The notes under the pieces are model-generated. The model saw nothing but the letters and a program-made list of their open reading frames with translations. It had not been told where the DNA came from and did not search any database. From the IMG/VR virus record IMGVR_UViG_3300026522_000001, positions 32,001 to 96,000 of that record: a stretch of DNA of 64,000 nucleotides; one strand, written 5' to 3'. The first letter of the stretch is position 1, and each line of letters begins with the position of its first letter. Of this stretch, positions 186-26,571 are shown one piece after another. The stretch is from a virus. The position numbers and the translations under genes are program-made.

Positions 186-214
186 ATTATAGCATTTATA
201 CAGCATTATGTCAA
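186..214 (-). promoter_or_regulatory. sigma70-type promoter
   Basis: On the minus strand, TTGACA (209-214), a 17-nt spacer, and TATAAT (186-191). Confidence 0.6.
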
Positions 215-218
215 TAAA

Positions 219-327
219 TTGACACTCCACATTTCTAAAAGCAGGAGATTCTTGGTTCAACAACCATTGCGCTTTCCGCCAAAGCATCTGGCGTCTTACA
301 CGATTTCCCCAAGCGTGAATTCCCATG
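219..327 (-). ncRNA. conserved structured element, copy A (paralog of 26446-26552)
   Basis: About 110 nt align with 26446-26552. Conserved blocks (minus strand) are GGGAATTCACGCTTGGGGAAATCRTGTAAGAC and GTTGAACCAAGAATC. Hairpins are kept by compensatory changes. The plus-strand ORF 162-353 across it looks spurious. Confidence 0.45.
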
Positions 328-386
328 CAAAACATATAGCTAAATTATTTTAAAAAATAGAAATTTGACAATGAAGTATAACTTGA

Positions 387-15576: not shown

Positions 15577-16062
15577 TTATAATCTATTTTTGCGCCATTC
15601 TATATCTAAAACATAGCGTGCTGAAACTGAAACTGGAGCATTTGTATCTCCATCGCTCAATACTGCTAATGGATTTAGCTTCATCACTATTCCATTGTCT
15701 GCCATGTATCTTTGAAATACAGGTAATAGTTGAGTTATTTCTTGTTCTATTTCATATACTTGCCGATAACAGGAGTCGTCGTAATCGTTCTCTCCATCTT
15801 CTGCCGCACCTTTTACATACATATCTATCCATAACTGAACTATTGCTCCGTTTACCCTGTCCTGTTTATCTAATGATTCTTCTGAACCAAATAGTATCCA
15901 TATTGCAGGATATTCGCCTGTATTACCTGCGCCTACTCTTATTATTAAGTCATCTCTATCAACTAGAGATGGAAATAATATAGAACCATCACTCTTTTTA
16001 TAGTTTCTCAAAAAATTTCTTAGCGTCATAGCTATTGTATACCAATTAACTTCATGTAACAA
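15577..16062 (-). CDS. tail completion or tail terminator-like protein
   Basis: 161 aa with a TTG start and AAGGAG RBS. The call rests only on position between the connector genes and the tail genes. Confidence 0.3.
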   Translation of the reverse strand: MLHEVNWYTIAMTLRNFLRNYKKSDGSILFPSLVDRDDLIIRVGAGNTGEYPAIWILFGSEESLDKQDRVNGAIVQLWIDMYVKGAAEDGENDYDDSCYRQVYEIEQEITQLLPVFQRYMADNGIVMKLNPLAVLSDGDTNAPVSVSARYVLDIEWRKNRL

Positions 16063-16076
16063 TTTTGTTTCACTCC

Positions 16077-16463
16077 TTAATTTCTATACACAGCCATTGT
16101 ACTAGGAAACTTTCTTCTTTTAGCACTATTACCATCTTTGAAGCTATCAGCTGTTATTTTTGATTCAAGCTCATCTAATAAAGATTTATATAGTCTATAC
16201 TTTAATGAAAAACTGTCATTATTTGCATCTTTACCAACACTAAATGTTGCTTTTCTTTGCGCCGCTGTCATATAAGCAAATGTCTGTGCAAGTCTGCTTA
16301 TTGGATATGGTGTAGGATTAGCAATATCTTTTGGCAAGATGTTAAATGTTAGTGCTAATGATTCTATATACTTAGATGATTCCTCTACTATAGCAGGGGT
16401 TACATAAGTTTTTAAGAGAGCATCATCTAAGTTTTTTGAATTAAAATATTCTCTATTAGCCAT
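16077..16463 (-). CDS. head-tail connector or adaptor protein
   Basis: 128 aa. It overlaps the upstream gene, suggesting translational coupling. The call is based on synteny. Confidence 0.35.
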   Translation of the reverse strand: MANREYFNSKNLDDALLKTYVTPAIVEESSKYIESLALTFNILPKDIANPTPYPISRLAQTFAYMTAAQRKATFSVGKDANNDSFSLKYRLYKSLLDELESKITADSFKDGNSAKRRKFPSTMAVYRN

Positions 16464-16992
16464 TAAGTAACCTCTCTAAGTTTTTGCTAAAAATCTTACT
16501 TATAGAAACAGACTTCTTTGCATTTATTACAGGTTTTTCTAAGTCTATTGGCGATGTACCCGGATGAAGTACTCTATGAACAACTATATATTTATCCATT
16601 TTCTCCCAATAAAACTTTAGCTTTTTATGTGGTGTATATTTACCAACTATCTCATGTGGTCTTGTACCATTCTGCACATATGGAGCATAATAATAATCTT
16701 TACCATGTTCTCTATGTACAGCTATTCTTTCGTTTATATATATAGTACCACCTTTTGCACCGTTTACTAACCTATATTGTATTGCTCGTTCTAGTCTGCC
16801 GCTTCTTGTCTTAAAAGAAGGATGGTGATGTCTTGCATACATAGTAATTTTTTCACAGGCTTCTACTAGACTGTCTCTTATAAAAGCATTGATGTCAACA
16901 TCTTTTATAATCCCTTCTTCTAGTCCTTTTGAAAGTTTATTTCTAAACTTAACTGCAACCCTACTACCTACATTATTAAGTATATCTGCCAC
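16456..16992 (-). CDS. HK97 gp10-like head-tail joining protein
   Basis: The KTRSGRLERAIQY motif resembles the gp10-family TGxLxxSI motif. The gene lies just after the capsid gene. Confidence 0.5.
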   Translation of the reverse strand: MADILNNVGSRVAVKFRNKLSKGLEEGIIKDVDINAFIRDSLVEACEKITMYARHHHPSFKTRSGRLERAIQYRLVNGAKGGTIYINERIAVHREHGKDYYYAPYVQNGTRPHEIVGKYTPHKKLKFYWEKMDKYIVVHRVLHPGTSPIDLEKPVINAKKSVSISKIFSKNLERLLNG

Positions 16993-17016
16993 AACATCAC
17001 CACTTTCTTAAACTTA

Positions 17017-18066
17017 TTAGTTTACAGAAGCAATTAGGATTGAACCTGCACCACTCTCAACGTCTGTGCTAAAGGATGGCAAGCAAATCTGAGAAACGAT
17101 TGTCTCAACATTAACAGGGTGCTCTATTGTACGTGTAAATACTGCTACACCTGTATCAATGATGCTAACTGCATTATTCTGCTTATTGAGAAGGTCTGCT
17201 TCCTCTGGTGTTGTACCCATGAACATGTTACCAATCACGCCGTTACCAACTGGAAGAAGTGTAACAACATCATCAGGGAAGAATGTCTTTGGTGTGCCAC
17301 CAACTGCATCTCTATAAGAGTTATCATTGATAAGAACAGTTAGTCCTGTAAACTTCTGAATTGCACTCTTAACTTCTGCCGCTGTGACAAGAGGTGCATT
17401 TACTGCATTTGGATAAAGTGCCTGCTTAACTTCCTTAGAAGCCTTGATAAGATTAAATGTCTTTGTTGTCATTACTGCGTAACCAAGTGCAATACGGAAG
17501 TCTGTTCTAAATTGGTCAACCCAATTCATCAGATCTTCTAGTGGTTTGCTGTTTTCAGTATCTTCCCACTTAACAGAAGCCTTTGTCTTTTGCTTACGAT
17601 TTAGCTTGTAGTCATATGCAAGACGAACACCATTACCAACAATATCAATCTTACCAGTTGAGATAAGTTGCATTGCCATGCGTTCGCGCTGTGCTCTTGC
17701 ACCACGGATTAGGTTGTTGGTATCATCAAAGATGTTTGCAACAATTCCTTCTAGTACGCTATCATTGGAGATTGCCATGATTTGCTGTCTAGTTTCCTCG
17801 TCAACCTTCATTCTTTCACGGAAGAATGGCATCTTTGATTTCTGGAGTTCAACAGACTGTCTATCACGGTATGTTGCCTGTGTATCAAAAGCACTTGGCT
17901 TTAGAGTAACAGGAAGTCCTGCATATCCGCTAATCTTATTTATTTCAAGCCCCATAACCTTCTTCTTTGGGAAAAGGTAATCAGAAAGATAAGTTGTCTG
18001 ATTTGCTTTTGTATTATCCCAATATGCTACAATATTTTGTGGGGTAACAATATCAAAAATATTCAC
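17017..18066 (-). CDS. major capsid protein, lambda gpE-like family
   Basis: 349 aa. The N-terminus ...TYLSDYLFPKKKVMGLEI... and the length are typical of the capsid E family. It has a GTG start with a GGAGG RBS and is preceded by scaffold and decoration genes. Confidence 0.8.
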   Translation of the reverse strand: MNIFDIVTPQNIVAYWDNTKANQTTYLSDYLFPKKKVMGLEINKISGYAGLPVTLKPSAFDTQATYRDRQSVELQKSKMPFFRERMKVDEETRQQIMAISNDSVLEGIVANIFDDTNNLIRGARAQRERMAMQLISTGKIDIVGNGVRLAYDYKLNRKQKTKASVKWEDTENSKPLEDLMNWVDQFRTDFRIALGYAVMTTKTFNLIKASKEVKQALYPNAVNAPLVTAAEVKSAIQKFTGLTVLINDNSYRDAVGGTPKTFFPDDVVTLLPVGNGVIGNMFMGTTPEEADLLNKQNNAVSIIDTGVAVFTRTIEHPVNVETIVSQICLPSFSTDVESGAGSILIASVN

Positions 18067-18089
18067 TATTATTTTTCCTCCCTCTTATA

Positions 18090-18818
18090 TTAGTCCTTAC
18101 GACCAAATACGATATGTGGTAGCTTTGCTTTTACTGCCGCACTTGGAACACTTGGCATATTATCTACATTGATATAGCCATGAATAATAAGTGCTCCTGT
18201 TGCTTCACCATCTGTAACATCTACACTGTGATAAAGAATACCGTCGATGTCTCCATCTACTGTTGCATCTCCACCCTTTGAAAGTGGCGCGGCTACTGCT
18301 TCTGCCGCTAGAGCATCTTCACCAACACCGGCCGCGAGTTCTGCTGTTACAAAAGTATTAGCAACAATATCGTCATTGATTGCATCGACAACCTCTTTAT
18401 ATGTGGTTGTGATAGCACCTGCCTTGTCTACTGCAAGAGTAACAACTAGTGCCTTTGTTTTAACATCAAAATTAACAGAAAGTGCACGCTTTGTTCCTTT
18501 TGTAAATGCTACTGTATAAGCACTAAGGTCGCCCTCATCCTTTGCTGTAACAACAACACTAGAATTTACTGTTAGTGCTGACTTTGTAACTTTTTCCTTA
18601 ACTGCTACTGCTTCTTGCTGTGGATTAACTAGAAGTGAACCTTCCTTACCATAAAGATATGTGCCTTGTGGAATAATATAATGTCCATCAACAGGTGTAA
18701 TATCTGCAATGGTATCTTTTGAAACTGTTACAGGACGTGCAACATACCCCTCGCTGACAAGAAGTAGTTCTTTATCATCCAAGCCTGTAACTGGACTTTT
18801 TCCAAAATTTACTGCCAT
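18090..18818 (-). CDS. head decoration protein (gpD-like) with a central insertion
   Basis: 242 aa, A/V/T-rich, located immediately upstream of the E-type capsid gene. Strong RBS. Confidence 0.5.
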   Translation of the reverse strand: MAVNFGKSPVTGLDDKELLLVSEGYVARPVTVSKDTIADITPVDGHYIIPQGTYLYGKEGSLLVNPQQEAVAVKEKVTKSALTVNSSVVVTAKDEGDLSAYTVAFTKGTKRALSVNFDVKTKALVVTLAVDKAGAITTTYKEVVDAINDDIVANTFVTAELAAGVGEDALAAEAVAAPLSKGGDATVDGDIDGILYHSVDVTDGEATGALIIHGYINVDNMPSVPSAAVKAKLPHIVFGRKD

Positions 18819-18865
18819 ATTTATTATGTCCTCCTTAAATATTAAATTTATTATATATTATCCGA

Positions 18866-19630
18866 TTAGCCAAATGTTTCAGCTAAACTTGCTCCGTCAC
18901 CATTTTCATTGCCGGAATTGTTATCACCAATAATCTTTGACATAAAATCACTAACACCAGTGTTAGCTCCATTGCCATTAGAACCATTTGAACCAAATCC
19001 ACTATGTACTTGTTTTTCAATAAATGCACTATTAGATTCATCATTTGCGAAGTCTGCAATATAATCAGCAATAGAAAGTTCCGAACCATCATCACCTGTA
19101 ATCATAACAGTCTTGCCGTCCTTGTCTACTGTTGCTCTACTGCTAAACATATCAACAAACATGTCAGGCTTAATTACATGATTCTTTTCAAGCTCTTTTC
19201 TAATAGCTGTCTTTTTAACTCCATCAATTCTCATTTTCTGTTCTTTGGTGAGATTTTCTGTAAGTTCAGAAATCTGCTTTGCATCCTTTTCTGTTTGACG
19301 CTTTAGCTTTGTAAGCTCTCTATTGAGTTCCTTAATCTCATCAGGTGTAGCTCCACCACCTGCTTCTTTTAGCATTTCATCTTTCTTTTCTTGAATCATT
19401 GTGTCAATATCTTCTGCTTCAAAGTCAAGATTAAATGCTTTCTTTACAATATCTAGCTTTTCTAGGCTTGCCTTATTATCCTCTAGGGACTTGTTAGATG
19501 CTTCTAGGTCTTTCTTTGCCTTGTTAAGCTCTCTCTGTTGAGCATTATATTCTTTCTTTAGAATACTTGCCTTATCCTTATTTTCATCTGTATCAAGCCC
19601 AAGTGCCTTTGTAAGTTCTTCTAGTGTCAT
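18866..19630 (-). CDS. scaffolding protein
   Basis: K/E-rich coiled-coil protein between the portal and capsid genes. I moved the start to Met-17 (19630), which has a GGAGG RBS, because the promoter at 19684-19712 lies too close to the ORF-track start. Confidence 0.65.
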   Translation of the reverse strand: MTLEELTKALGLDTDENKDKASILKKEYNAQQRELNKAKKDLEASNKSLEDNKASLEKLDIVKKAFNLDFEAEDIDTMIQEKKDEMLKEAGGGATPDEIKELNRELTKLKRQTEKDAKQISELTENLTKEQKMRIDGVKKTAIRKELEKNHVIKPDMFVDMFSSRATVDKDGKTVMITGDDGSELSIADYIADFANDESNSAFIEKQVHSGFGSNGSNGNGANTGVSDFMSKIIGDNNSGNENGDGASLAETFG

Positions 19631-19683
19631 ATTTATCTTTTCCTCCGTAATAAAAATCTTTTTATAATTTTCATTCATTATAT

Positions 19684-19712
19684 ATTATAACATATTTTTA
19701 ATAATTTGTCAA
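19684..19712 (-). promoter_or_regulatory. sigma70-type promoter
   Basis: On the minus strand, TTGACA (19707-19712), a 17-nt spacer, and TGtTATAAT. Confidence 0.6.
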
Positions 19713-19787
19713 TACCTGTAAATATATATAAAAGTGTGTATAAAATCTCGTTATTAAACATATACAAATAATACATATTATTACCTC

Positions 19788-21260
19788 TTATACCGCTGTT
19801 GGCTGAACTGTCTTTATTGTACCTGCTTCTATTCCAGTACCCTTTTCAGGATTCTTCTCTAGGTCATTTATTACTTCTGTTACAACACTATTGTCAACAT
19901 CTTGAAGTACACTTCTTATTACCTGCTTCTTTACTTCTATATTAAATCCTTCGCAAATATTCATCGCTAAAGAAGAAGTAGCATTTGCAAGAACACTTGA
20001 AGCGTCTGTAACACTAAAGTTTTTATTATATACTACTGATATGTTATCAAGACTTTCACCAACATATAGCCCAAATATCTTTGCTATCTTTTTTTCTACT
20101 TCTTGTAGCCCATTAGCTAATTCTGTCAATGACTGATATAGCTGTTGGTTCATCATCTGCATAGCCGCACCAGAAACATTTGAAACATACTGTTGCTGTG
20201 TAAACTGCATGTTTGCCATTCTATAAATTTCTTTTATTAACATAGAAATTTCATTACTTATCATATCAGAAGCATGTGTATTAGGGCAAATCCATTCAGG
20301 TTTCTGACTACCATTTCTATATAATAGCAAATCAGAAGTTCCTATGTTTAGTGAATCAACATCTTCATAATCATCATCTTCACCTACTGGGTATACTAAT
20401 AGGTTAAATGCCTGATTACGTGTAATTTCTCTCCATTCACTGCAAGCATTAAACAGAGCTAAATTAGTTCTTGCTATTGCATACATATCAGATTGTGGAA
20501 TTAAATCATCACTATTATTTATAGTCCCATAGACAGGTATCATTGGTATAATACCAATAGTATTATCAAACTTTTCTGTATTGCCATCATAGCTTTTAAT
20601 ACAAAATTCTTTTGTCAATGTCCATGTCTCAAACATGGTTTTCTTATTACCTTCGCTGTCTATTGTATCATTCTCCACACTATATTTAATGTATACAAGT
20701 CTACCAAATTTATCTACAACATAATCTTCTATGTTTGCTGGACTAACTAAATATAGATATGGATATAGTCTATCATCAATAAATTTCTTTTTTGTTACAA
20801 CAGTAGTTTCATCTATTCTTGGTGCGTCTATTACAATAAATTCAACCCCATGTAGCTTTGCTCTTATAGCCGCTTTTTTCATAAATCTTGTCAATGATGT
20901 TCCGTTTCCATCAACGTCTGATAAAAACAAATTATAAGTTGATGAAATGTTCTGCCTAACAGGTTCATTCTTAAAAATAAGATTTATATTTGCATCTACT
21001 ATCGGCTTTACATAATTTATGAAATATGACATGTTCTTACGTCTTGTATATTTCTCTGCTGTTTCTCTCGGATGAGGAATTAAAGCATCTCCTGTTTCAA
21101 ACATACCATTTGCTCTATAAGCATCATCAAGTAATTTATATTTGTTAAATGGAGCACCACTATATGAAGCCATCAACTGATTTATTGTCTCATTATATTT
21201 CTTTTCAGTATATTCATGCTCACCTTTTAACGTGGAATACCTTTCACCTATTTGTGACAT
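19788..21260 (-). CDS. portal protein
   Basis: 490 aa, immediately downstream of the large terminase gene. The call rests on size and synteny. Confidence 0.7.
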   Translation of the reverse strand: MSQIGERYSTLKGEHEYTEKKYNETINQLMASYSGAPFNKYKLLDDAYRANGMFETGDALIPHPRETAEKYTRRKNMSYFINYVKPIVDANINLIFKNEPVRQNISSTYNLFLSDVDGNGTSLTRFMKKAAIRAKLHGVEFIVIDAPRIDETTVVTKKKFIDDRLYPYLYLVSPANIEDYVVDKFGRLVYIKYSVENDTIDSEGNKKTMFETWTLTKEFCIKSYDGNTEKFDNTIGIIPMIPVYGTINNSDDLIPQSDMYAIARTNLALFNACSEWREITRNQAFNLLVYPVGEDDDYEDVDSLNIGTSDLLLYRNGSQKPEWICPNTHASDMISNEISMLIKEIYRMANMQFTQQQYVSNVSGAAMQMMNQQLYQSLTELANGLQEVEKKIAKIFGLYVGESLDNISVVYNKNFSVTDASSVLANATSSLAMNICEGFNIEVKKQVIRSVLQDVDNSVVTEVINDLEKNPEKGTGIEAGTIKTVQPTAV

Positions 21261-21289
21261 CTAATTATATTCACCAACTTTCAAAATCA

Positions 21290-22636
21290 TTACAGGCCTA
21301 TACGGCGTGTAACATTTTCCATAGAATGTACTCTCTGTGTTTCCATTACTAAATATCTTAATGCATCGCAAGCGTGGTCATTAACCTTGCATGGACTATC
21401 TATACCTAACTGTTGTTTTTTTGAATCCCAACTATATGTATGTAATTCTTGTATTAGATTTGTACATTCTTTACTTATATATAATTTACCTTGTGAAAAC
21501 AATGTGGCTACTGTTCTTATTCCATCTAATACATCGTTATTAGCATTTTTTGTTTTCATATGGTATCTTCTTAACTGTAACTTAAAGCTATTTGCCGCAG
21601 GGTCTACAATTATAGGAATTTCTCTATATGTAAGCCCATCTGTTAAATATTCATTATCAGATATGAATTGTCTCATATCATTTGTATACTCAATATCTGT
21701 TTTTTGTGAATCATAGTCACCCTGTTCTTGAGCTTCTAATCTTCCTGCAAAATAATATTCTTTACATATATAAATATTTCCATTTATATCCTTAAAACCT
21801 AATTCAAAAGCTGTAGCATTTGCTGTTCCATAGTCTACACCAATATACCATTTTTCAGCCTTATCATAAGGTATATCGTCAGGATGTTTTATGTTTACTG
21901 GTGACAACATATCATATATTAGTCCATCAGCAACACACCATTTACCATCTATAAATCTACGTTTCCAAACACCACTATATAGCTGTTTGTATCTATCCTT
22001 TACTTCTTCTGAAAGTGAAGGGTTATCATCCATCGTGAAATGTAAATAGATTCCATTTATTTTTGGTAGCCTTTTTATTACATCTTTATAAAACCATGAC
22101 CAAGGACTACCAGGGTTTGAAGTAGTAAATATTTTTGCACCATCAACACTATGTCTTGCTACTAACTGATTATAGAACGATTCAGGCATTAGTACAACCT
22201 CGTCGATTAGTGAACAAGCAAGTGTTAAGCCCTGTACCATGTCTTGTGCTCTCTCATCTTTACCACCGAAGATATATACAAGATTACAAGTCTTTCCCTG
22301 ACGTAACTCTAAAAAGTTCTCACTTCTATGGTCTATTACTTCTATACCTAATGTTAAACATATTTGCTTTAGTGGATTTACTAAGTTTCTTCTTGCTGTC
22401 ATTACTGTCTTACCACTTATTGAAGCATTTTGATAGTTAAAATTTGACATTAAGAATAAAACAAAAGATGTTATAGCTACAACTGTTTTTCCTGAGCGGA
22501 CACTTCCGTCAGCTACACATATAAATTTATCTTTATATGGACTATCTTTTGTCCACCAAGATAATAATTCAAGTTGTTTTTTGCTAAATGGTTGAAACTT
22601 AAATGCTTTAGCAACAATACTCTTATTATTTGCCAT
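21290..22636 (-). CDS. terL: terminase large subunit (PBSX/XtmB-like)
   Basis: Walker A GSVRSGKT and Walker B LIDEV. The C-terminal nuclease region carries acidic motifs GVDYG and DHACDALRY. Confidence 0.9.
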   Translation of the reverse strand: MANNKSIVAKAFKFQPFSKKQLELLSWWTKDSPYKDKFICVADGSVRSGKTVVAITSFVLFLMSNFNYQNASISGKTVMTARRNLVNPLKQICLTLGIEVIDHRSENFLELRQGKTCNLVYIFGGKDERAQDMVQGLTLACSLIDEVVLMPESFYNQLVARHSVDGAKIFTTSNPGSPWSWFYKDVIKRLPKINGIYLHFTMDDNPSLSEEVKDRYKQLYSGVWKRRFIDGKWCVADGLIYDMLSPVNIKHPDDIPYDKAEKWYIGVDYGTANATAFELGFKDINGNIYICKEYYFAGRLEAQEQGDYDSQKTDIEYTNDMRQFISDNEYLTDGLTYREIPIIVDPAANSFKLQLRRYHMKTKNANNDVLDGIRTVATLFSQGKLYISKECTNLIQELHTYSWDSKKQQLGIDSPCKVNDHACDALRYLVMETQRVHSMENVTRRIGL

Positions 22637-22650
22637 TCAAATCTTTTCCT

Positions 22651-23370
22651 TTAGTAGTCTTTTGTCGCTTCTTTCCAATCATCATTTGAATCATTATTTT
22701 CTTCTTTTTGATTCTCATATAATTTCTTTGTTGATTTACTTATAGCATCAATAAGGCTATTTGAATCAGCTCCAGAATCTTTCTTTGTGCCCCAATCAAA
22801 GTAATTCTTTAGATTTTCCCATGCTTTATATTTATTTGGAAGTAATAGTTTTATTCCATCTCTGCCTTGTGAAACTTCTGACAAAAGACTTGTATCACAC
22901 TCATCACTATTCTTAAATTTAAGTCTACTTATTTTCTTAAATTTCTGATTTCCATTTTCATCTAAAACAGGACTACCATCTACGTCTGTTTCTGGTACTT
23001 CTTCTGTATAGAATGACATATAATCTCCTATGTCTGCTTTTGCTATTTTTAGATTATATTCTACATATTCTAGTGGGTCTATATCTAAAGTATATGCCAT
23101 TAACTTCTTTGCTCTTTTTAGTGCGGCCTGTATTTTAGGCTTTTTTATTTCCATATTTCCTAAAACACCTGCTGTTTTCTTATTCTTTACATTAAAAGCA
23201 CTAAAATAAGAAATTGTAGGATTTGAATTAGAAAGATATAGCATAACAAAATCTTTTTGTTTATCAGTTAAATCTGAATCACCAAAAATATCATCATATA
23301 TTTTTTCTCTTAATTCTTTATTTTCTTCAAAAGAATTAACAACACGCTCTTCTTCTTTTTTCTTTGCCAT
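22651..23370 (-). CDS. terS: terminase small subunit
   Basis: LTDKQKDFVMLYL is a Terminase_2-like helix-turn-helix. The gene lies directly upstream of terL. Confidence 0.7.
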   Translation of the reverse strand: MAKKKEEERVVNSFEENKELREKIYDDIFGDSDLTDKQKDFVMLYLSNSNPTISYFSAFNVKNKKTAGVLGNMEIKKPKIQAALKRAKKLMAYTLDIDPLEYVEYNLKIAKADIGDYMSFYTEEVPETDVDGSPVLDENGNQKFKKISRLKFKNSDECDTSLLSEVSQGRDGIKLLLPNKYKAWENLKNYFDWGTKKDSGADSNSLIDAISKSTKKLYENQKEENNDSNDDWKEATKDY

Positions 23371-23417
23371 CTAAAAAGTCCCCTTTATCTAAATGATTAG
23401 CATACTGTTATATCAGT

Positions 23418-23446
23418 ATTATAGCATATTTTTAATAAAAAATCAA
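23418..23446 (-). promoter_or_regulatory. sigma70-type promoter upstream of terS
   Basis: On the minus strand, TTGATT (23441-23446), a 17-nt spacer, and TATAAT (23418-23423). Confidence 0.55.
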
Positions 23447-23457
23447 GATATTATATA

Positions 23458-23493
23458 CAACAAAATAGCTACTGTGGTTAATCAGTAGCTATT
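23458..23493 (-). terminator. hairpin terminator after the tRNA cluster
   Basis: 11-bp stem AATAGCTACTG/CAGTAGCTATT followed by TTTTGTT on the minus strand. Confidence 0.5.
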
Positions 23494-23566
23494 TGCACAA
23501 GGAGACTGAAAAATGGAAACCGAATTCATTGGCAATCTTTATGTGTTTAGCATATTGATTGCATGT

Positions 23567-23640
23567 TGGAGCGAATAATCAGAATCGAACTGACATATTA
23601 TCCTTGGAGGGGATATGTTCTACCATTGAACTATATTCGC
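23567..23640 (-). tRNA. tRNA-Gly(UCC) with an unusual C33
   Basis: Cloverleaf GCGAATA-TA-GTTC-AATGGTA-GAAC-A-TATCC-CCTCCAA-GGATA-ATAT-GTCAG-TTCGATT-CTGAT-TATTCGC-T-CCA. The discriminator is U, as in bacterial tRNA-Gly. Confidence 0.75.
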
Positions 23641-23642
23641 AT

Positions 23643-23716
23643 TGGATGCGGAAGAAAGAGTTGCACTTTCATCTCCTGCCTATGAAACAAGTATTCTTCT
23701 GTTAAACTATTCCGCT
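23643..23716 (-). tRNA. divergent tRNA with CAU anticodon (Met or Ile2-type)
   Basis: AGCGGAA..CTTGT-TTCATAG-GCAGG..GAAAG-TGCAACT-CTTTC-TTCCGCA-T-CCA. It has an A1/A72 mismatch, no GG in the D-loop, and a non-TTC T-loop. Confidence 0.5.
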
Positions 23717-23717
23717 A

Positions 23718-24036
23718 TGGTTGAGATAGATGGGCTTGAACCATCGACCTTTGGTTTATCTTGCTACTACATATTTCTATGTCCACAAAAAATATTGTGT
23801 TGTAGTCTGGGCTATATCTTCATCATTTCAGATGGGCAACGTATAGTCTCTACGAATCCTGTGCAATCAGTTTTCTCGGTATTGTCTTTAGCATTACCTA
23901 GTAAGAGTTTCACCGATATAGTTGCCTGCACTTTATACATTAACTCATTACATTAAATCTATTGCAAGTAATGATTCTGTATAAAGGCTCATATTATGTT
24001 TAAGACCACTGCTCTAACCTACTGAGCTATATCTCA
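23718..24036 (-). tRNA. tRNA-Ile(UAU) interrupted by a group I intron
   Basis: Exon 1 (24036-24002) and exon 2 (23759-23718) form a canonical 77-nt cloverleaf with CCA once 23760-24001 is removed. The resulting anticodon loop is CTTATAA. Confidence 0.8.
23760..24001 (-). ncRNA. group I intron (242 nt, no ORF) between anticodon positions 34 and 35
   Basis: The 5' exon ends in U and the intron ends in G. R-like GTAGAGACTATACG and S-like AAGATATAGCC elements are present. Helices P2, P2.1, P3, P4, P6, P7, P8 and P9 can be drawn by hand. Confidence 0.75.
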
Positions 24037-24040
24037 ATTA

Positions 24041-24115
24041 TGGTGGGCTTACTAAGAATCGAACTTAGATTGTGGGATTAGAAGTCCCATGTATTATCCT
24101 TTATACTATAAGCCC
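24041..24115 (-). tRNA. tRNA-Arg(UCU)
   Basis: GGGCTTA-TA-GTAT-AAAGGATA-ATAC-A-TGGGA-CTTCTAA-TCCCA-CAAT-CTAAG-TTCGATT-CTTAG-TAAGCCC-A-CCA. All stems are perfectly paired. Confidence 0.9.
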
Positions 24116-24338
24116 ATTATTACAAGTTTTTTCCTGTTTCCCCACCAAGCAGAATGGAAAACTTGAAAAACCATCTAACACACCCACATATTACTATGTA
24201 TATATCCATATGTAATGTTAGTCCCTAAGCCAGCTTACATTTTACTAGACGCATTTGATAAAGATTTATAAATCATATATGTATAACTTTTTTCAATTAA
24301 TTGCTGTGTGCGTCTATTCCCTTACCGCTTATATATTT

Positions 24339-24367
24339 ATTATACCACAGGTTAAGCCCTGTGTCAA
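24339..24367 (-). promoter_or_regulatory. sigma70-type promoter driving a leader of about 220 nt plus the tRNA cluster
   Basis: On the minus strand, TTGACA (24362-24367), a 17-nt spacer, and TGgTATAAT (24339-24347). Confidence 0.65.
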
Positions 24368-24452
24368 TACCTTATTTTTTTTTATTCTCCAAACTTGAAA
24401 TTCTGTTCTCCCCGATGACATGTACTTATTCTAACACATATTAGCCCCAATG

Positions 24453-26009
24453 TCAACAGTATTTGAAAATTTCTTCGACAACGTCATAGCGGGACTTATT
24501 CAGCTGTCTGCAAAAGGCTTTATATGGGTCAAGTTCATTACAACAAACCATATCTACAAGCTCTTTACTAAATCCACTCAAAAGAATTACACCATTTCTT
24601 GAGCTTTGAATTGGGACTGTACCATCATTATAACAAGAGACATTCCAAAAAATGAGTTTAGGAAGTTCATACCCACAATCCTTATACTTCTTCTCAATAT
24701 TCTCAAATAATGTGTCATTTTCTTGTATATTTTGATTGCGTAATGGGAATCCAAATGCATCTGTATCACACATAGCAGTATTAAACTGCATATCAGAAAT
24801 GATAAGAACATTCTTTGGCATATCTGCCTGTGTCGCATTACACTTCTTTGCTGTTTTTAGGATGAGGTCAAATACAGATTCAACATTAGTTGTACTACAT
24901 TCTGTATTTTTCATTAGCTTTTCTATATTGTCCCTTAATGTATTGCAGTTTACTGTAATCATCTTTGGGTTATTAGAAAATGCCATGATTTTATCTTTGA
25001 ATACACCTGTATTATTTTTTGCACAATACAGAGCAATTGAATCCCCAATTTCCATCGCTGAAACATTTTTTGATACATATGATAACATAGAGCCACTTCC
25101 ATCTCTAACAACAAGCGTATCAGCAAATGTTTTTGGTTTCTTTTGAGATTCCCAAAGACTCTCTAGGGTATTGTCAACAGGTTTCATTCCAATGCCAAAA
25201 AAATTAGCATCTTTCTCATATGCATGAACTATGTCATACAAAAACATAGAATTAGCATTTATCTTATTTTCGCCACGAGCTACATCAATAAGATATTCAT
25301 TTCTTCTAGCAAAATCGTGCTTAAGAAAAGAATCCTTATACTTGATATTTGCTAAAGATGGTACATGAGAGTAATCTACTTTATCCCATTTATTTGAACT
25401 TAACTTTACCTCTAAAACATCTAGCCCTTTTCTTAGTTTAGAAAGTGTTTTTCTATACTGTGAAGGAGACATTCTAAAATATTTTCTAAGTTCATTACCA
25501 ACTGCTACTGTTTTCTTTGAAGATGTATTGATACTCGGCATCCATTTTGCTAAAAGACTGTATGGCTTTCCATTGGAATAATTATATAAGTCATCATAAA
25601 GCTGTTCTTGCAAAATCCCTGCAATATATATTTTTAAGTCATCATATTTTGTATTTGCAAAAAGATAAATATAGTCGTCCCATCTGCCAAATTCAGGCAA
25701 GTCAACCGTGTAAATAAATCTATAGAAAATAGACATATCGATTTCTGTAAGATGAAGTAGCAACTTTCTAAAAGTATCTCTTTCACCCATTCCTTCTCTG
25801 ACATCTCTCAAAAAGAGAAGGAATCTTAATGTCATAGCTTTATCTTGATAATATGCTTCATCAAAAAGAGAATAATCTATTGGATTTTCCCTAAATGATG
25901 AAACTTTATAGAAAAAATCTAAAAGTTTACTGCCTGTTGTAGCATAAGCTACTGCACCATTTTCTGTTGTTGTTTTTACATTGTTTTCAAGATTTTCAAT
26001 AAAATTCAT
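24453..26009 (-). CDS. DUF2828-type protein with a Ro60/TROVE-like N-terminus and a C-terminal vWA domain
   Basis: The N-terminus TTENGAVAYATTGSKLLDFF resembles the TROVE entry motif (N-x-E/N-G-G/A-x-A-F/Y). The C-terminal MIDAS motif VVRDGSGSM is followed by ISDMQFN. This TROVE-plus-vWA architecture matches Ro60. Confidence 0.6.
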   Translation of the reverse strand: MNFIENLENNVKTTTENGAVAYATTGSKLLDFFYKVSSFRENPIDYSLFDEAYYQDKAMTLRFLLFLRDVREGMGERDTFRKLLLHLTEIDMSIFYRFIYTVDLPEFGRWDDYIYLFANTKYDDLKIYIAGILQEQLYDDLYNYSNGKPYSLLAKWMPSINTSSKKTVAVGNELRKYFRMSPSQYRKTLSKLRKGLDVLEVKLSSNKWDKVDYSHVPSLANIKYKDSFLKHDFARRNEYLIDVARGENKINANSMFLYDIVHAYEKDANFFGIGMKPVDNTLESLWESQKKPKTFADTLVVRDGSGSMLSYVSKNVSAMEIGDSIALYCAKNNTGVFKDKIMAFSNNPKMITVNCNTLRDNIEKLMKNTECSTTNVESVFDLILKTAKKCNATQADMPKNVLIISDMQFNTAMCDTDAFGFPLRNQNIQENDTLFENIEKKYKDCGYELPKLIFWNVSCYNDGTVPIQSSRNGVILLSGFSKELVDMVCCNELDPYKAFCRQLNKSRYDVVEEIFKYC

Positions 26010-26273
26010 CTTTTTTCTTCCTTCCTAGATACAAAATAATTATCCCATATTATTATTTATTATTGATTGCTGTATGTATCTAAATAAATTAAAATTATAT
26101 TATAAATACTTTAGGTTATGAATACCAAAACAAATCAATACAATTCCTGAAATTAGAATAAGACTAACTAGCATTATATATCTCCAAAAAGCAATTTGCT
26201 TTAACATCTATTGGTTTCATCATTTTGACTACTTATGCTATCCACCACGTAAAGGTTGATGTTACTGGATAAC

Positions 26274-26354
26274 TGCCCCTGACAGGATTCGAACCTGCAC
26301 GTCTTTCGACAACGGATTTTGAATCCGCACTGTCTTCCATTCCAGCACAAGGGC
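26274..26354 (-). tRNA. tRNA-Leu(CAA), long variable arm, no encoded CCA
   Basis: GCCCTTG..GCGGA-TTCAAAA-TCCGT, a variable arm TGTCGAAAGACGT, then GCAGG-TTCGAAT-CCTGT-CAGGGGC-A. Confidence 0.85.
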
Positions 26355-26445
26355 AATAATTGGTTTTTTCGTTTTTTCCTTAACGACCTAGCTTTTCAGA
26401 TGCGTTTTAGTGCTGGCCAGTCACTTCAAGCATAGTCCTATCCGC

Positions 26446-26565
26446 TTGACACTCCCCATGCCTAAAGGCAGGGGATTCTTGGTTCAACGACCAGTGCACC
26501 GCTTCCAAGGAATTGGTGTCTTACATGATTTCCCCAAGCGTGAATTCCCGTGTGTCCCACGGTAT
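26446..26565 (-). ncRNA. promoter-proximal conserved structured element, copy B (5' leader ahead of tRNA-Leu)
   Basis: It starts about 7 nt downstream of the -10 box at 26572-26577. It shares the 219-327 consensus and proposed helices P1 GGGAATTC/GAATCCCC, P2 CGCTT/AAGCG, and hairpins CCAA-TTCC-TTGG, TGGT..ACCA and CCCCTGCC..GGCATGGGG. Confidence 0.5.
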
Positions 26566-26571
26566 GTTTAT

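Follow-up and report, generated by a model that had tools for sequence, protein, structure and literature searches.

A structured RNA of about 110 nucleotides (nt) that lies close to a strong promoter, occurs twice in one viral genome and carries no family name raises the question of whether it is a new RNA family serving phage gene expression. Such an element was predicted on the minus strand of a 64,000-nt stretch of the IMG/VR virus record IMGVR_UViG_3300026522_000001 (positions 32,001 to 96,000 of that record; hereafter, the window), where it was proposed to be either a put-like processive antiterminator or the RNA ligand of an adjacent Ro-like protein. Our analysis led to a different answer. 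Both elements are very probably the terminal ~118 nt of an insertion sequence (IS) of the IS200/IS605 family, of the ISDra2/ISGst2 type, which as RNA forms the ωRNA scaffold that guides the nuclease TnpB, and both are now immobile relics. The two elements belong to a known class and not to a new RNA family; an orphan ωRNA scaffold without its nuclease is a known and common relic.

Identity of the two elements

A covariance model built from relatives recovered the two predicted minus-strand copies and no third copy in the window. Copy B (26446..26563) is 118 nt long, ends with TCAA and scored 125.9 bits. Copy A (219..338) is a degenerate version of the same scaffold and right end; it scored 91.8 bits, has its TCAA end at 219 and shows clear homology from about position 326 on (CATGGGAATTC). 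The copies are 76% identical, contain the two almost invariant blocks that had been described, and terminate in the same decamer, ...GGAGTGTCAA, exactly where the similarity between them stops. Rfam gave no relevant match for the whole window at gathering scores or for both copies at E ≤ 10. The original prediction was therefore right in that no named family of this database covers the motif; however, the element itself is of a known class, the TnpB ωRNA scaffold. A megablast search with window positions 16000-26700 (10.7 kb) found no close relative among GenBank phages.

The assignment was drawn from what accompanies the element elsewhere. In BLASTN searches against GenBank phages, its 3′ 37–42 nt were found in Geobacillus virus E3, where they immediately follow a gene annotated as IS605 OrfB (94.6% identity over 37 nt), and at the end of a coding sequence for 402 amino acids (aa) in Microcystis phages, and full-length matches of 72% were obtained in two Enterocloster phages. 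A degenerate right-end pattern matched 112 stretches in viral contigs. TnpB was sought in the 1.5 kb upstream of the 62 distinct viral right ends that had at least this much upstream sequence; a match of at least 250 aa was present at 31, a shorter one at 11 and none at 20. It was also present upstream of the scaffold in four Selenomonadaceae loci, and altogether the unrelated contexts in which homologues occurred numbered well over 100, with tnpB preceding the element in half of these. The two closest viral relatives (L107 and L108) each contain an open reading frame (ORF) of 369–373 aa that stops ~130 nt before the TCAA end and has the Pfam domains HTH_OrfB_IS605, OrfB_IS605 and Cas12f1-like_TNB. 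The ORF product of L108 matched ISDra2 TnpB (8H1J, 8BF8 and 8EXA) over its full length with E = 1.5e-96.

Every family member, copies A and B of the window included, ends with GTGTCAA and is then followed by unrelated flanks, as expected of an IS200/IS605 right end, where the guide comes from the flanking sequence. TCAA is a right-end cleavage motif, as in IS608. The homologues are 107–125 nt long and differ by non-multiples of 3, so the plus-strand ORFs that run across both copies are artefacts, as had been suspected.

A 24-mer specific to the window copies (ACGCTTGGGGAAATCRTGTAAGAC) was located at 25 genome loci. As many as 23 of these were in assemblies of Selenomonas ruminantium, other Selenomonas, Mitsuokella jalaludinii, Anaerovibrio, Selenomonadaceae or Veillonellaceae, and the other two were in a Succinatimonas metagenome-assembled genome. 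Several copies with differing flanks occurred per genome, and some Selenomonadaceae copies follow tnpA and a tnpB of 397–414 aa. Compared with the best host copies, copy B is 92% and copy A 79% identical. Sequence comparison thus points to Selenomonadaceae as the likely hosts, which would also be the probable suppliers of any trans-acting TnpB. A short, non-autonomous, multicopy derivative with no ORF was also observed in Selenomonadaceae genomes (L127, L131, L133, L134, L142, L143, L144 and L150); it consists of a left end, a promoter-like box (TAGTATAAT), a conserved interior of ~200 nt and the ωRNA scaffold with the right end.

The left-end hairpins of the relatives (CCGTAAAACCCC...GGGGATATAAGG) were preceded by NTTAT, mostly TTTAT, at ten junctions. 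TTTAT is the transposon-adjacent motif (TAM) measured for ISGst2 TnpB2 (PMC10055086). Reading the TAM as TTATC was considered and given up after the ten junctions and the ISGst2 literature were compared; that string is NTTAT plus the first base of the left end.

In the window itself, neither TnpB (Pfam on large ORFs, tblastn) nor a TldR-like protein (Pfam, tblastn) was found, and there was no IS left-end hairpin. TnpB was likewise absent from the 8.7 kb past the left end and the 6 kb past the right end of the window (sample ERZ27252042). Having no tnpA, tnpB or left end, the window copies are unable to transpose. At ~4.6–4.7 kb past the right end of the window (L156 1284-1387), a weak 16-bit match to the scaffold model was observed, which consists mainly of the hairpin AAAACCCCUAUCUUCAGCUAGGGGAGUGUAAA. 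This hairpin is similar to those at both ends of the IS family and may represent a third remnant of greater age.

Fold of the RNA in copies B and A

We analyzed the fold using an alignment of 27 distinct family members (A3). The RNAalifold consensus contained 23 pairs, 12 of which showed compensatory changes on both sides, and the pseudoknot was added from the ISDra2 structure. With the pseudoknot included, 96.8% of cells were paired; the observed values were reached by none of 500 shuffles, and slid controls gave 34–42%. This covariation-supported fold agrees with the original view of the element as a functional-RNA type rather than a coding or simple protein-binding site. The helices first proposed as common to both copies, P1 GGGAATTC/GAATCCCC, P2 CGCTT/AAGCG and TGGT/ACCA, did not withstand the same analysis, being 68.8% paired with 0 compensatory pairs and no better than shuffles. 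Single-sequence folding energies of the two copies were unremarkable (z = −0.5 and −0.4).

In copy B, all elements of the fold lie on the minus strand. Stem 1 (CCGUG/CACGG, 26562-26558/26552-26548) has the loop GGACA, whose GACA (26556-26553) would form the pseudoknot with UGUC at −6 to −3 (26451-26448). Stem 2 (CUUGG/CCAAG) spans 26538-26534/26482-26478, and stem 3a, at scaffold positions 34–39/70–75 (26530-26525/26494-26489), has two broken pairs. Stem 3b, at about 26517-26498, is the variable internal hairpin noticed earlier, and stem 4, CCCCUGCC-UUUA-GGCAUGGGG (26473-26467/26462-26454), is the 3′ hairpin noticed with it; both are real. The UUUA tetraloop of stem 4 occupies −21 to −18 (26466-26463), and the stem covaries across the 27 relatives. 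The pseudoknot GACA/UGUC is possible in 98% of cells and shows zero compensatory changes because its 3′ strand never varies.

Copy B retains 21 of the 23 pairs, with stems 1, 2 and 4 and the predicted pseudoknot intact; the losses are two uncompensated end mismatches in stem 3a, U39·C70 and A34·C75, relative to the host copies. In copy A, stem 3a is kept, the GGACA loop that supplies the 5′ strand of the pseudoknot has been replaced, stem 4 is partly lost or weakened, and the covariance model flags non-canonical pairs in its stems 1 and 4. Copy A is a dead relic whose pseudoknot-forming loop has been lost. Its guide-equivalent flank (TTTATTGACATAATGCTGTA; 199..218, minus strand) overlaps the strong, perfect promoter at 214-186 (TTGACA-17-TATAAT), which serves the genes downstream of copy A. 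Just upstream of copy A lies a weak promoter-like site (TTGTCA-16-AATAAT, 10/12; 344..371, minus strand), which may be a chance match in AT-rich DNA; 11 promoter-like sites were counted in 1.1 kb, compared with 6.8 expected from shuffles.

Proposed history of copy B and rival explanations

Upstream of copy B, a sigma-70 promoter with an extended TG (TTGACA-17-TGtTATAAT; 26572..26600, minus strand) matches the consensus at 12/12 positions, as predicted. Its start is predicted at about 26565, 2 bases before the scaffold, with 8 nt between the promoter and the structured segment. We compared this arrangement with that in two sister phages (L117 and L118), whose DUF2828/VWA protein is 88–92% identical to that of the window and which have the promoter, the downstream genes and the sequence after TCAA in common with it. 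Between the promoter and the post-TCAA sequence, the sisters contain ~75 nt that were not recognised by the ωRNA model. A metagenome scan with a downstream 22-mer showed that these 75 nt are continuous with the ~90 nt downstream, the two being parts of a single conserved RNA of ~165 nt, hereafter X. Interpretation of the ~75 nt as a decayed or different ωRNA was rejected: they had no model match and no BLAST relative among IS loci, and they align as the 5′ part of X.

X occurs in phage tRNA arrays, with homologues of about 110–165 nt and some covariation. Intact copies were found at L117 1537-1705, L118 496-665, L122 4590-4751 and L152 1-165, and in L121, L123 and L124. The covarying helices include GAUGYG/CRCAUC and a terminal hairpin with a AAGGAAAA loop, and X matched neither Rfam nor, by BLASTN, any GenBank phage. 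Only the 3′ ~90 nt of X (26356..26445, minus strand) persist in the window, as the transcript tail between the scaffold and tRNA-Leu; its 5′ part is lost. The promoter at 26572..26600 is ancestral to the locus, judging from the sister phages, in which it would drive X, tRNA-Leu and the DUF2828 gene.

The junctions suggest how copy B reached its position. On the right, the IS end joins X directly after CCCTTGAT, which ends with TTGAT, inside the helix GAUGYG/CRCAUC. On the left, the window and L117 have ...TATAATATAAACATACCGTG in common, the scaffold of complete elements also starts with (A)TACCGTG, and the octamer ATACCGTG stands at the beginning of X as well as of the scaffold. The IS would have inserted into the X gene, between the operon promoter and tRNA-Leu, 3′ of TTGAT; the position of this junction is observed, and normal transposition is presumed. 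Subsequently, a deletion between the two octamers would have eliminated the 5′ part of X together with TTGAT, the IS left end and the genes for the transposase and the nuclease, thereby putting the ancestral promoter 8 nt from a nearly intact scaffold. Transcription would then begin ~2 nt before the scaffold, and the following 16–20 nt (GCGGATAGGACTATGC...) would stand in place of the guide; the guide-equivalent flank (GCGGATAGGACTATGCTTGA; 26426..26445, minus strand) is made of the first bases of the interrupted X RNA. Such a microhomology deletion explains the promoter-proximal position without invoking selection. We also observed that the first ~35 nt of X in the sisters (ACCGTGAAGAGCGGGAATAAACAATCTTTGTGGAA; L117 1537-1575 and L118 496-535) are closer to the scaffold start (window 26563-26527) than to X of other phages, which could reflect chance, an older conversion event, or the cause of the deletion there.

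Two independent transposon insertions and a deletion at copy B are thus the simpler explanation of two copies at the starts of late transcription units. Homologues elsewhere accompany tnpB and not late operons. Our best estimate is that copy B is a recent relic of a selfish element in the leader of the tRNA-Leu/DUF2828 operon and not an adapted phage function. With a cognate TnpB from a host IS copy, copy B RNA could still be loaded in trans and target the unoccupied X loci of related phages, which would be the ordinary 'homing' logic of IS605-family transposons.

Nevertheless, several points weigh against this account. The ωRNA assignment, made from sequence, draws on synteny, the boundary, covariation and the architecture of the fold, as no Rfam family offers a curated model; the deletion was deduced from a single comparison; and the TnpB search covered ~79 kb (the window and ~14.7 kb), a part of the phage genome. 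The sister-phage site TTGAT, though identical to the ISDra2 TAM, matches TTTAT at 4/5 positions only, so the integration site is near-cognate. In addition, a promoter-like site stands in similar register at both copies, the transcription start of copy B nearly coincides with the scaffold start, and four of its five scaffold helices (stems 1, 2 and 4 and the pseudoknot) are intact. Promoter register, start position and intact helices leave room for selection on expression.

If such selection acted, copy B would be an exapted phage guide RNA, in which the promoter–scaffold fusion was selected and the nuclease-less ωRNA loads host TnpB against related phages or titrates it. The perfect promoter with its start ~2 nt before the scaffold, the intact helices of copy B, and a likely host family that carries many tnpB copies with a 92% identical scaffold fit this explanation, and standalone ωRNAs are reported to work in trans (PMC10691335; PMC10055086). 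L118 even contains TTGAT followed by a 23/24 match to the copy B flank. However, that match has a mismatch at guide position 6, the L117 site, also after TTGAT, has mismatches at guide positions 3 and 5, and both known sister targets carry the non-cognate TTGAT instead of TTTAT. The characterised relative that uses the TTTAT TAM, ISGst2 TnpB2, reportedly tolerates TAM mutations very poorly (PMC10055086). Exact 20-mers of both flanks had no match in viral contigs and no second site in the window, and the copy A flank had no second match in the window, the viral contigs or the fetched loci. Furthermore, the ancestral promoter is present in the sisters without the scaffold, the fusion was seen in this genome only, stem 3a carries two uncompensated mismatches, copy A is degenerate, and the guide would have no defined 3′ end, as the transcript continues into the X remnant and tRNA-Leu. 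We consider exaptation unlikely. Slightly less probable again is its specific form, in which a lytic or temperate Selenomonadaceae phage expresses a nuclease-less guide RNA and borrows host TnpB to cut related phages whose X is unoccupied. If true, this would be RNA-guided competition between phages, or homing of the phage's own allele, without a phage-encoded nuclease.

The two functions originally proposed fared worse. As an RNA ligand of the adjacent Ro-like (DUF2828/DUF7788/VWA) protein, analogous to Y RNA, the element would at least be suitably placed, in the same transcription unit and ~440 nt upstream of the gene (24453-26009). However, the sister phages with an 88–92% identical protein do not have it, no such element is near the 47–49% identical proteins in L119 and L120, and in an Enterocloster phage the 5.9 kb examined around a full-length solo copy of the element contain no homologue of the protein. 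The homologues accompany tnpB and not Ro-like genes, Y_RNA was not matched in Rfam, and a sequence search of the PDB with the protein matched neither Ro60 nor any TROVE protein; this explanation is highly improbable. We give equally little credence to a put-like, cis-acting processive antiterminator at the starts of late transcription units. The element is structured, occurs twice and lies close to a promoter, with a terminator-like hairpin (23494-23463) further downstream; but the sisters keep the promoter and the operon without it, copy A lies upstream, not downstream, of the strong promoter at 214-186, and an element that is the end of a mobile element in so many unrelated contexts, half of them after tnpB, is not what this role would predict. 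The reading as transposon relics is therefore retained.

Neighbouring features and known systems

The next gene in the transcription unit of copy B is tRNA-Leu(CAA) (26273..26355, minus strand), 90 nt downstream of the scaffold end. Directly after its 3′ end, window positions 26216-26273 (minus strand) matched the hepatitis delta virus-like ribozyme model RF02682 with 22.2 bits, compared with a gathering score of 44, and with E = 0.066 in a 501-nt search. These ribozyme-like 58 nt are absent from the sister phages, whose tRNA-Leu sequence also differs. The sequence suggests that tRNA-Leu and the ribozyme-like stretch form a tRNA-plus-ribozyme cassette, which we take to resemble the tRNA-linked 'theta' ribozymes of gut phages. 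Between this region and the DUF2828 gene, a 24-codon ORF (26100-26174, minus strand) encodes a hydrophobic peptide, MLVSLILISGIVLICFGIHNLKYL, that is conserved in both sisters.

The label 'Ro-like' of the protein encoded at 24453-26009 (minus strand) rests on Pfam DUF2828, DUF7788 and a weak VWA_2 match only. In L119, the gene for a 49%-identical DUF2828/VWA homologue has a ROOL RNA (RF03087, 197 bits; 1848-2415) shortly upstream of it, within a tRNA array; the DUF2828/VWA gene is thus preceded by differing structured RNAs and tRNAs in different phages. X is a better candidate than the ωRNA scaffold for the RNA partner of the DUF2828/VWA protein, since it is located upstream of tRNA-Leu and the DUF2828/DUF7788/VWA gene. 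Near the start of the window, the minus strand (about 690-1000) has another perfect TTGACA-17-TATAAT promoter (999-971). No convincing ORF was seen in the ~300 nt after it, which include a perfect 14-bp inverted repeat, CCAATCAGGTAGGA...TCCTACCTGATTGG, and possibly encode a further non-coding RNA.

The main value of these results is a correction, as an apparent unnamed RNA family with two paralogues is the guide scaffold of a very common transposon. Rfam has no model that recognises this ωRNA clade, and about one-third of such ends in viral contigs are without tnpB and will therefore continue to turn up in genome scans as 'novel RNAs'. The locus is also a clean natural case of fusion between a strong promoter and the end of a transposon. 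As the likely hosts of the phage possess the matching nuclease, use of host TnpB in trans is directly testable. Moreover, the insertion exposed an unclassified, conserved RNA, X, in phage tRNA arrays beside a DUF2828/VWA gene, and X offers the better prospect of new RNA biology.

Several known systems were compared. TldR proteins, nuclease-dead TnpB-like repressors of temperate phages (PMC10705468), resemble the present case in using a phage-borne TnpB-type guide RNA with a fixed guide. However, TldR loci encode the protein beside the guide RNA and their guides match host promoters, neither of which was found for the window copies. Standalone ωRNAs come from genes that have neither a nuclease nor a transposase gene beside them (Altae-Tran et al. 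2021, as summarised in PMC10691335); they share a genome with effector loci and were 'evidently mobilised', whereas here the carrier is a phage with no tnpB in ~79 kb, the copies are immobile, and a compatible effector would have to be host-derived. Gene-less derivatives of ISGst2, similar to palindrome-associated transposable elements (PATEs), still encode ωRNAs that need TnpB in trans (PMC10055086). PATEs keep both ends and are mobilisable, in contrast to the window copies, which are truncated remnants with the right end only. Standalone and PATE-encoded ωRNAs are both reported to act in trans (PMC10691335; PMC10055086). With ISGst2-type elements of Geobacillus stearothermophilus (Meers et al. 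2023, PMC10055086), the family shares the TTTAT left-end TAM, and the right-end hairpin of the Geobacillus phage is 94.6% identical over 37 nt.

Finally, the window copies were compared with ISDra2 of Deinococcus radiodurans, whose structure is available from cryo-electron microscopy (8H1J and 8EXA). Its ωRNA has a 116-nt scaffold with stems 1–4, a pseudoknot with nucleotides −5 to −3, a UUUA tetraloop at −20 to −17 and a flexible stem 3b (PMC10097598). The window element has no detectable primary-sequence match to curated models. It also differs in its stem 1, a short hairpin with a 5-nt loop that would provide the pseudoknot strand; in the lack of a cis-encoded tnpB; and in the flank motif of its family, NTTAT rather than TTGAT. 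The two are nevertheless alike in a scaffold of ~116–118 nt that ends at the right end, with the 3′ guide taken from the flank; in a stem 1 with a putative pseudoknot segment, a long-range stem 2, a stem 3a and a dispensable, variable stem 3b; and in a stem 4 with a UUUA tetraloop ~18–21 nt from the end. In agreement with this shared architecture, the TnpB encoded beside close homologues of the window copies matches that of ISDra2 (E = 1.5e-96).

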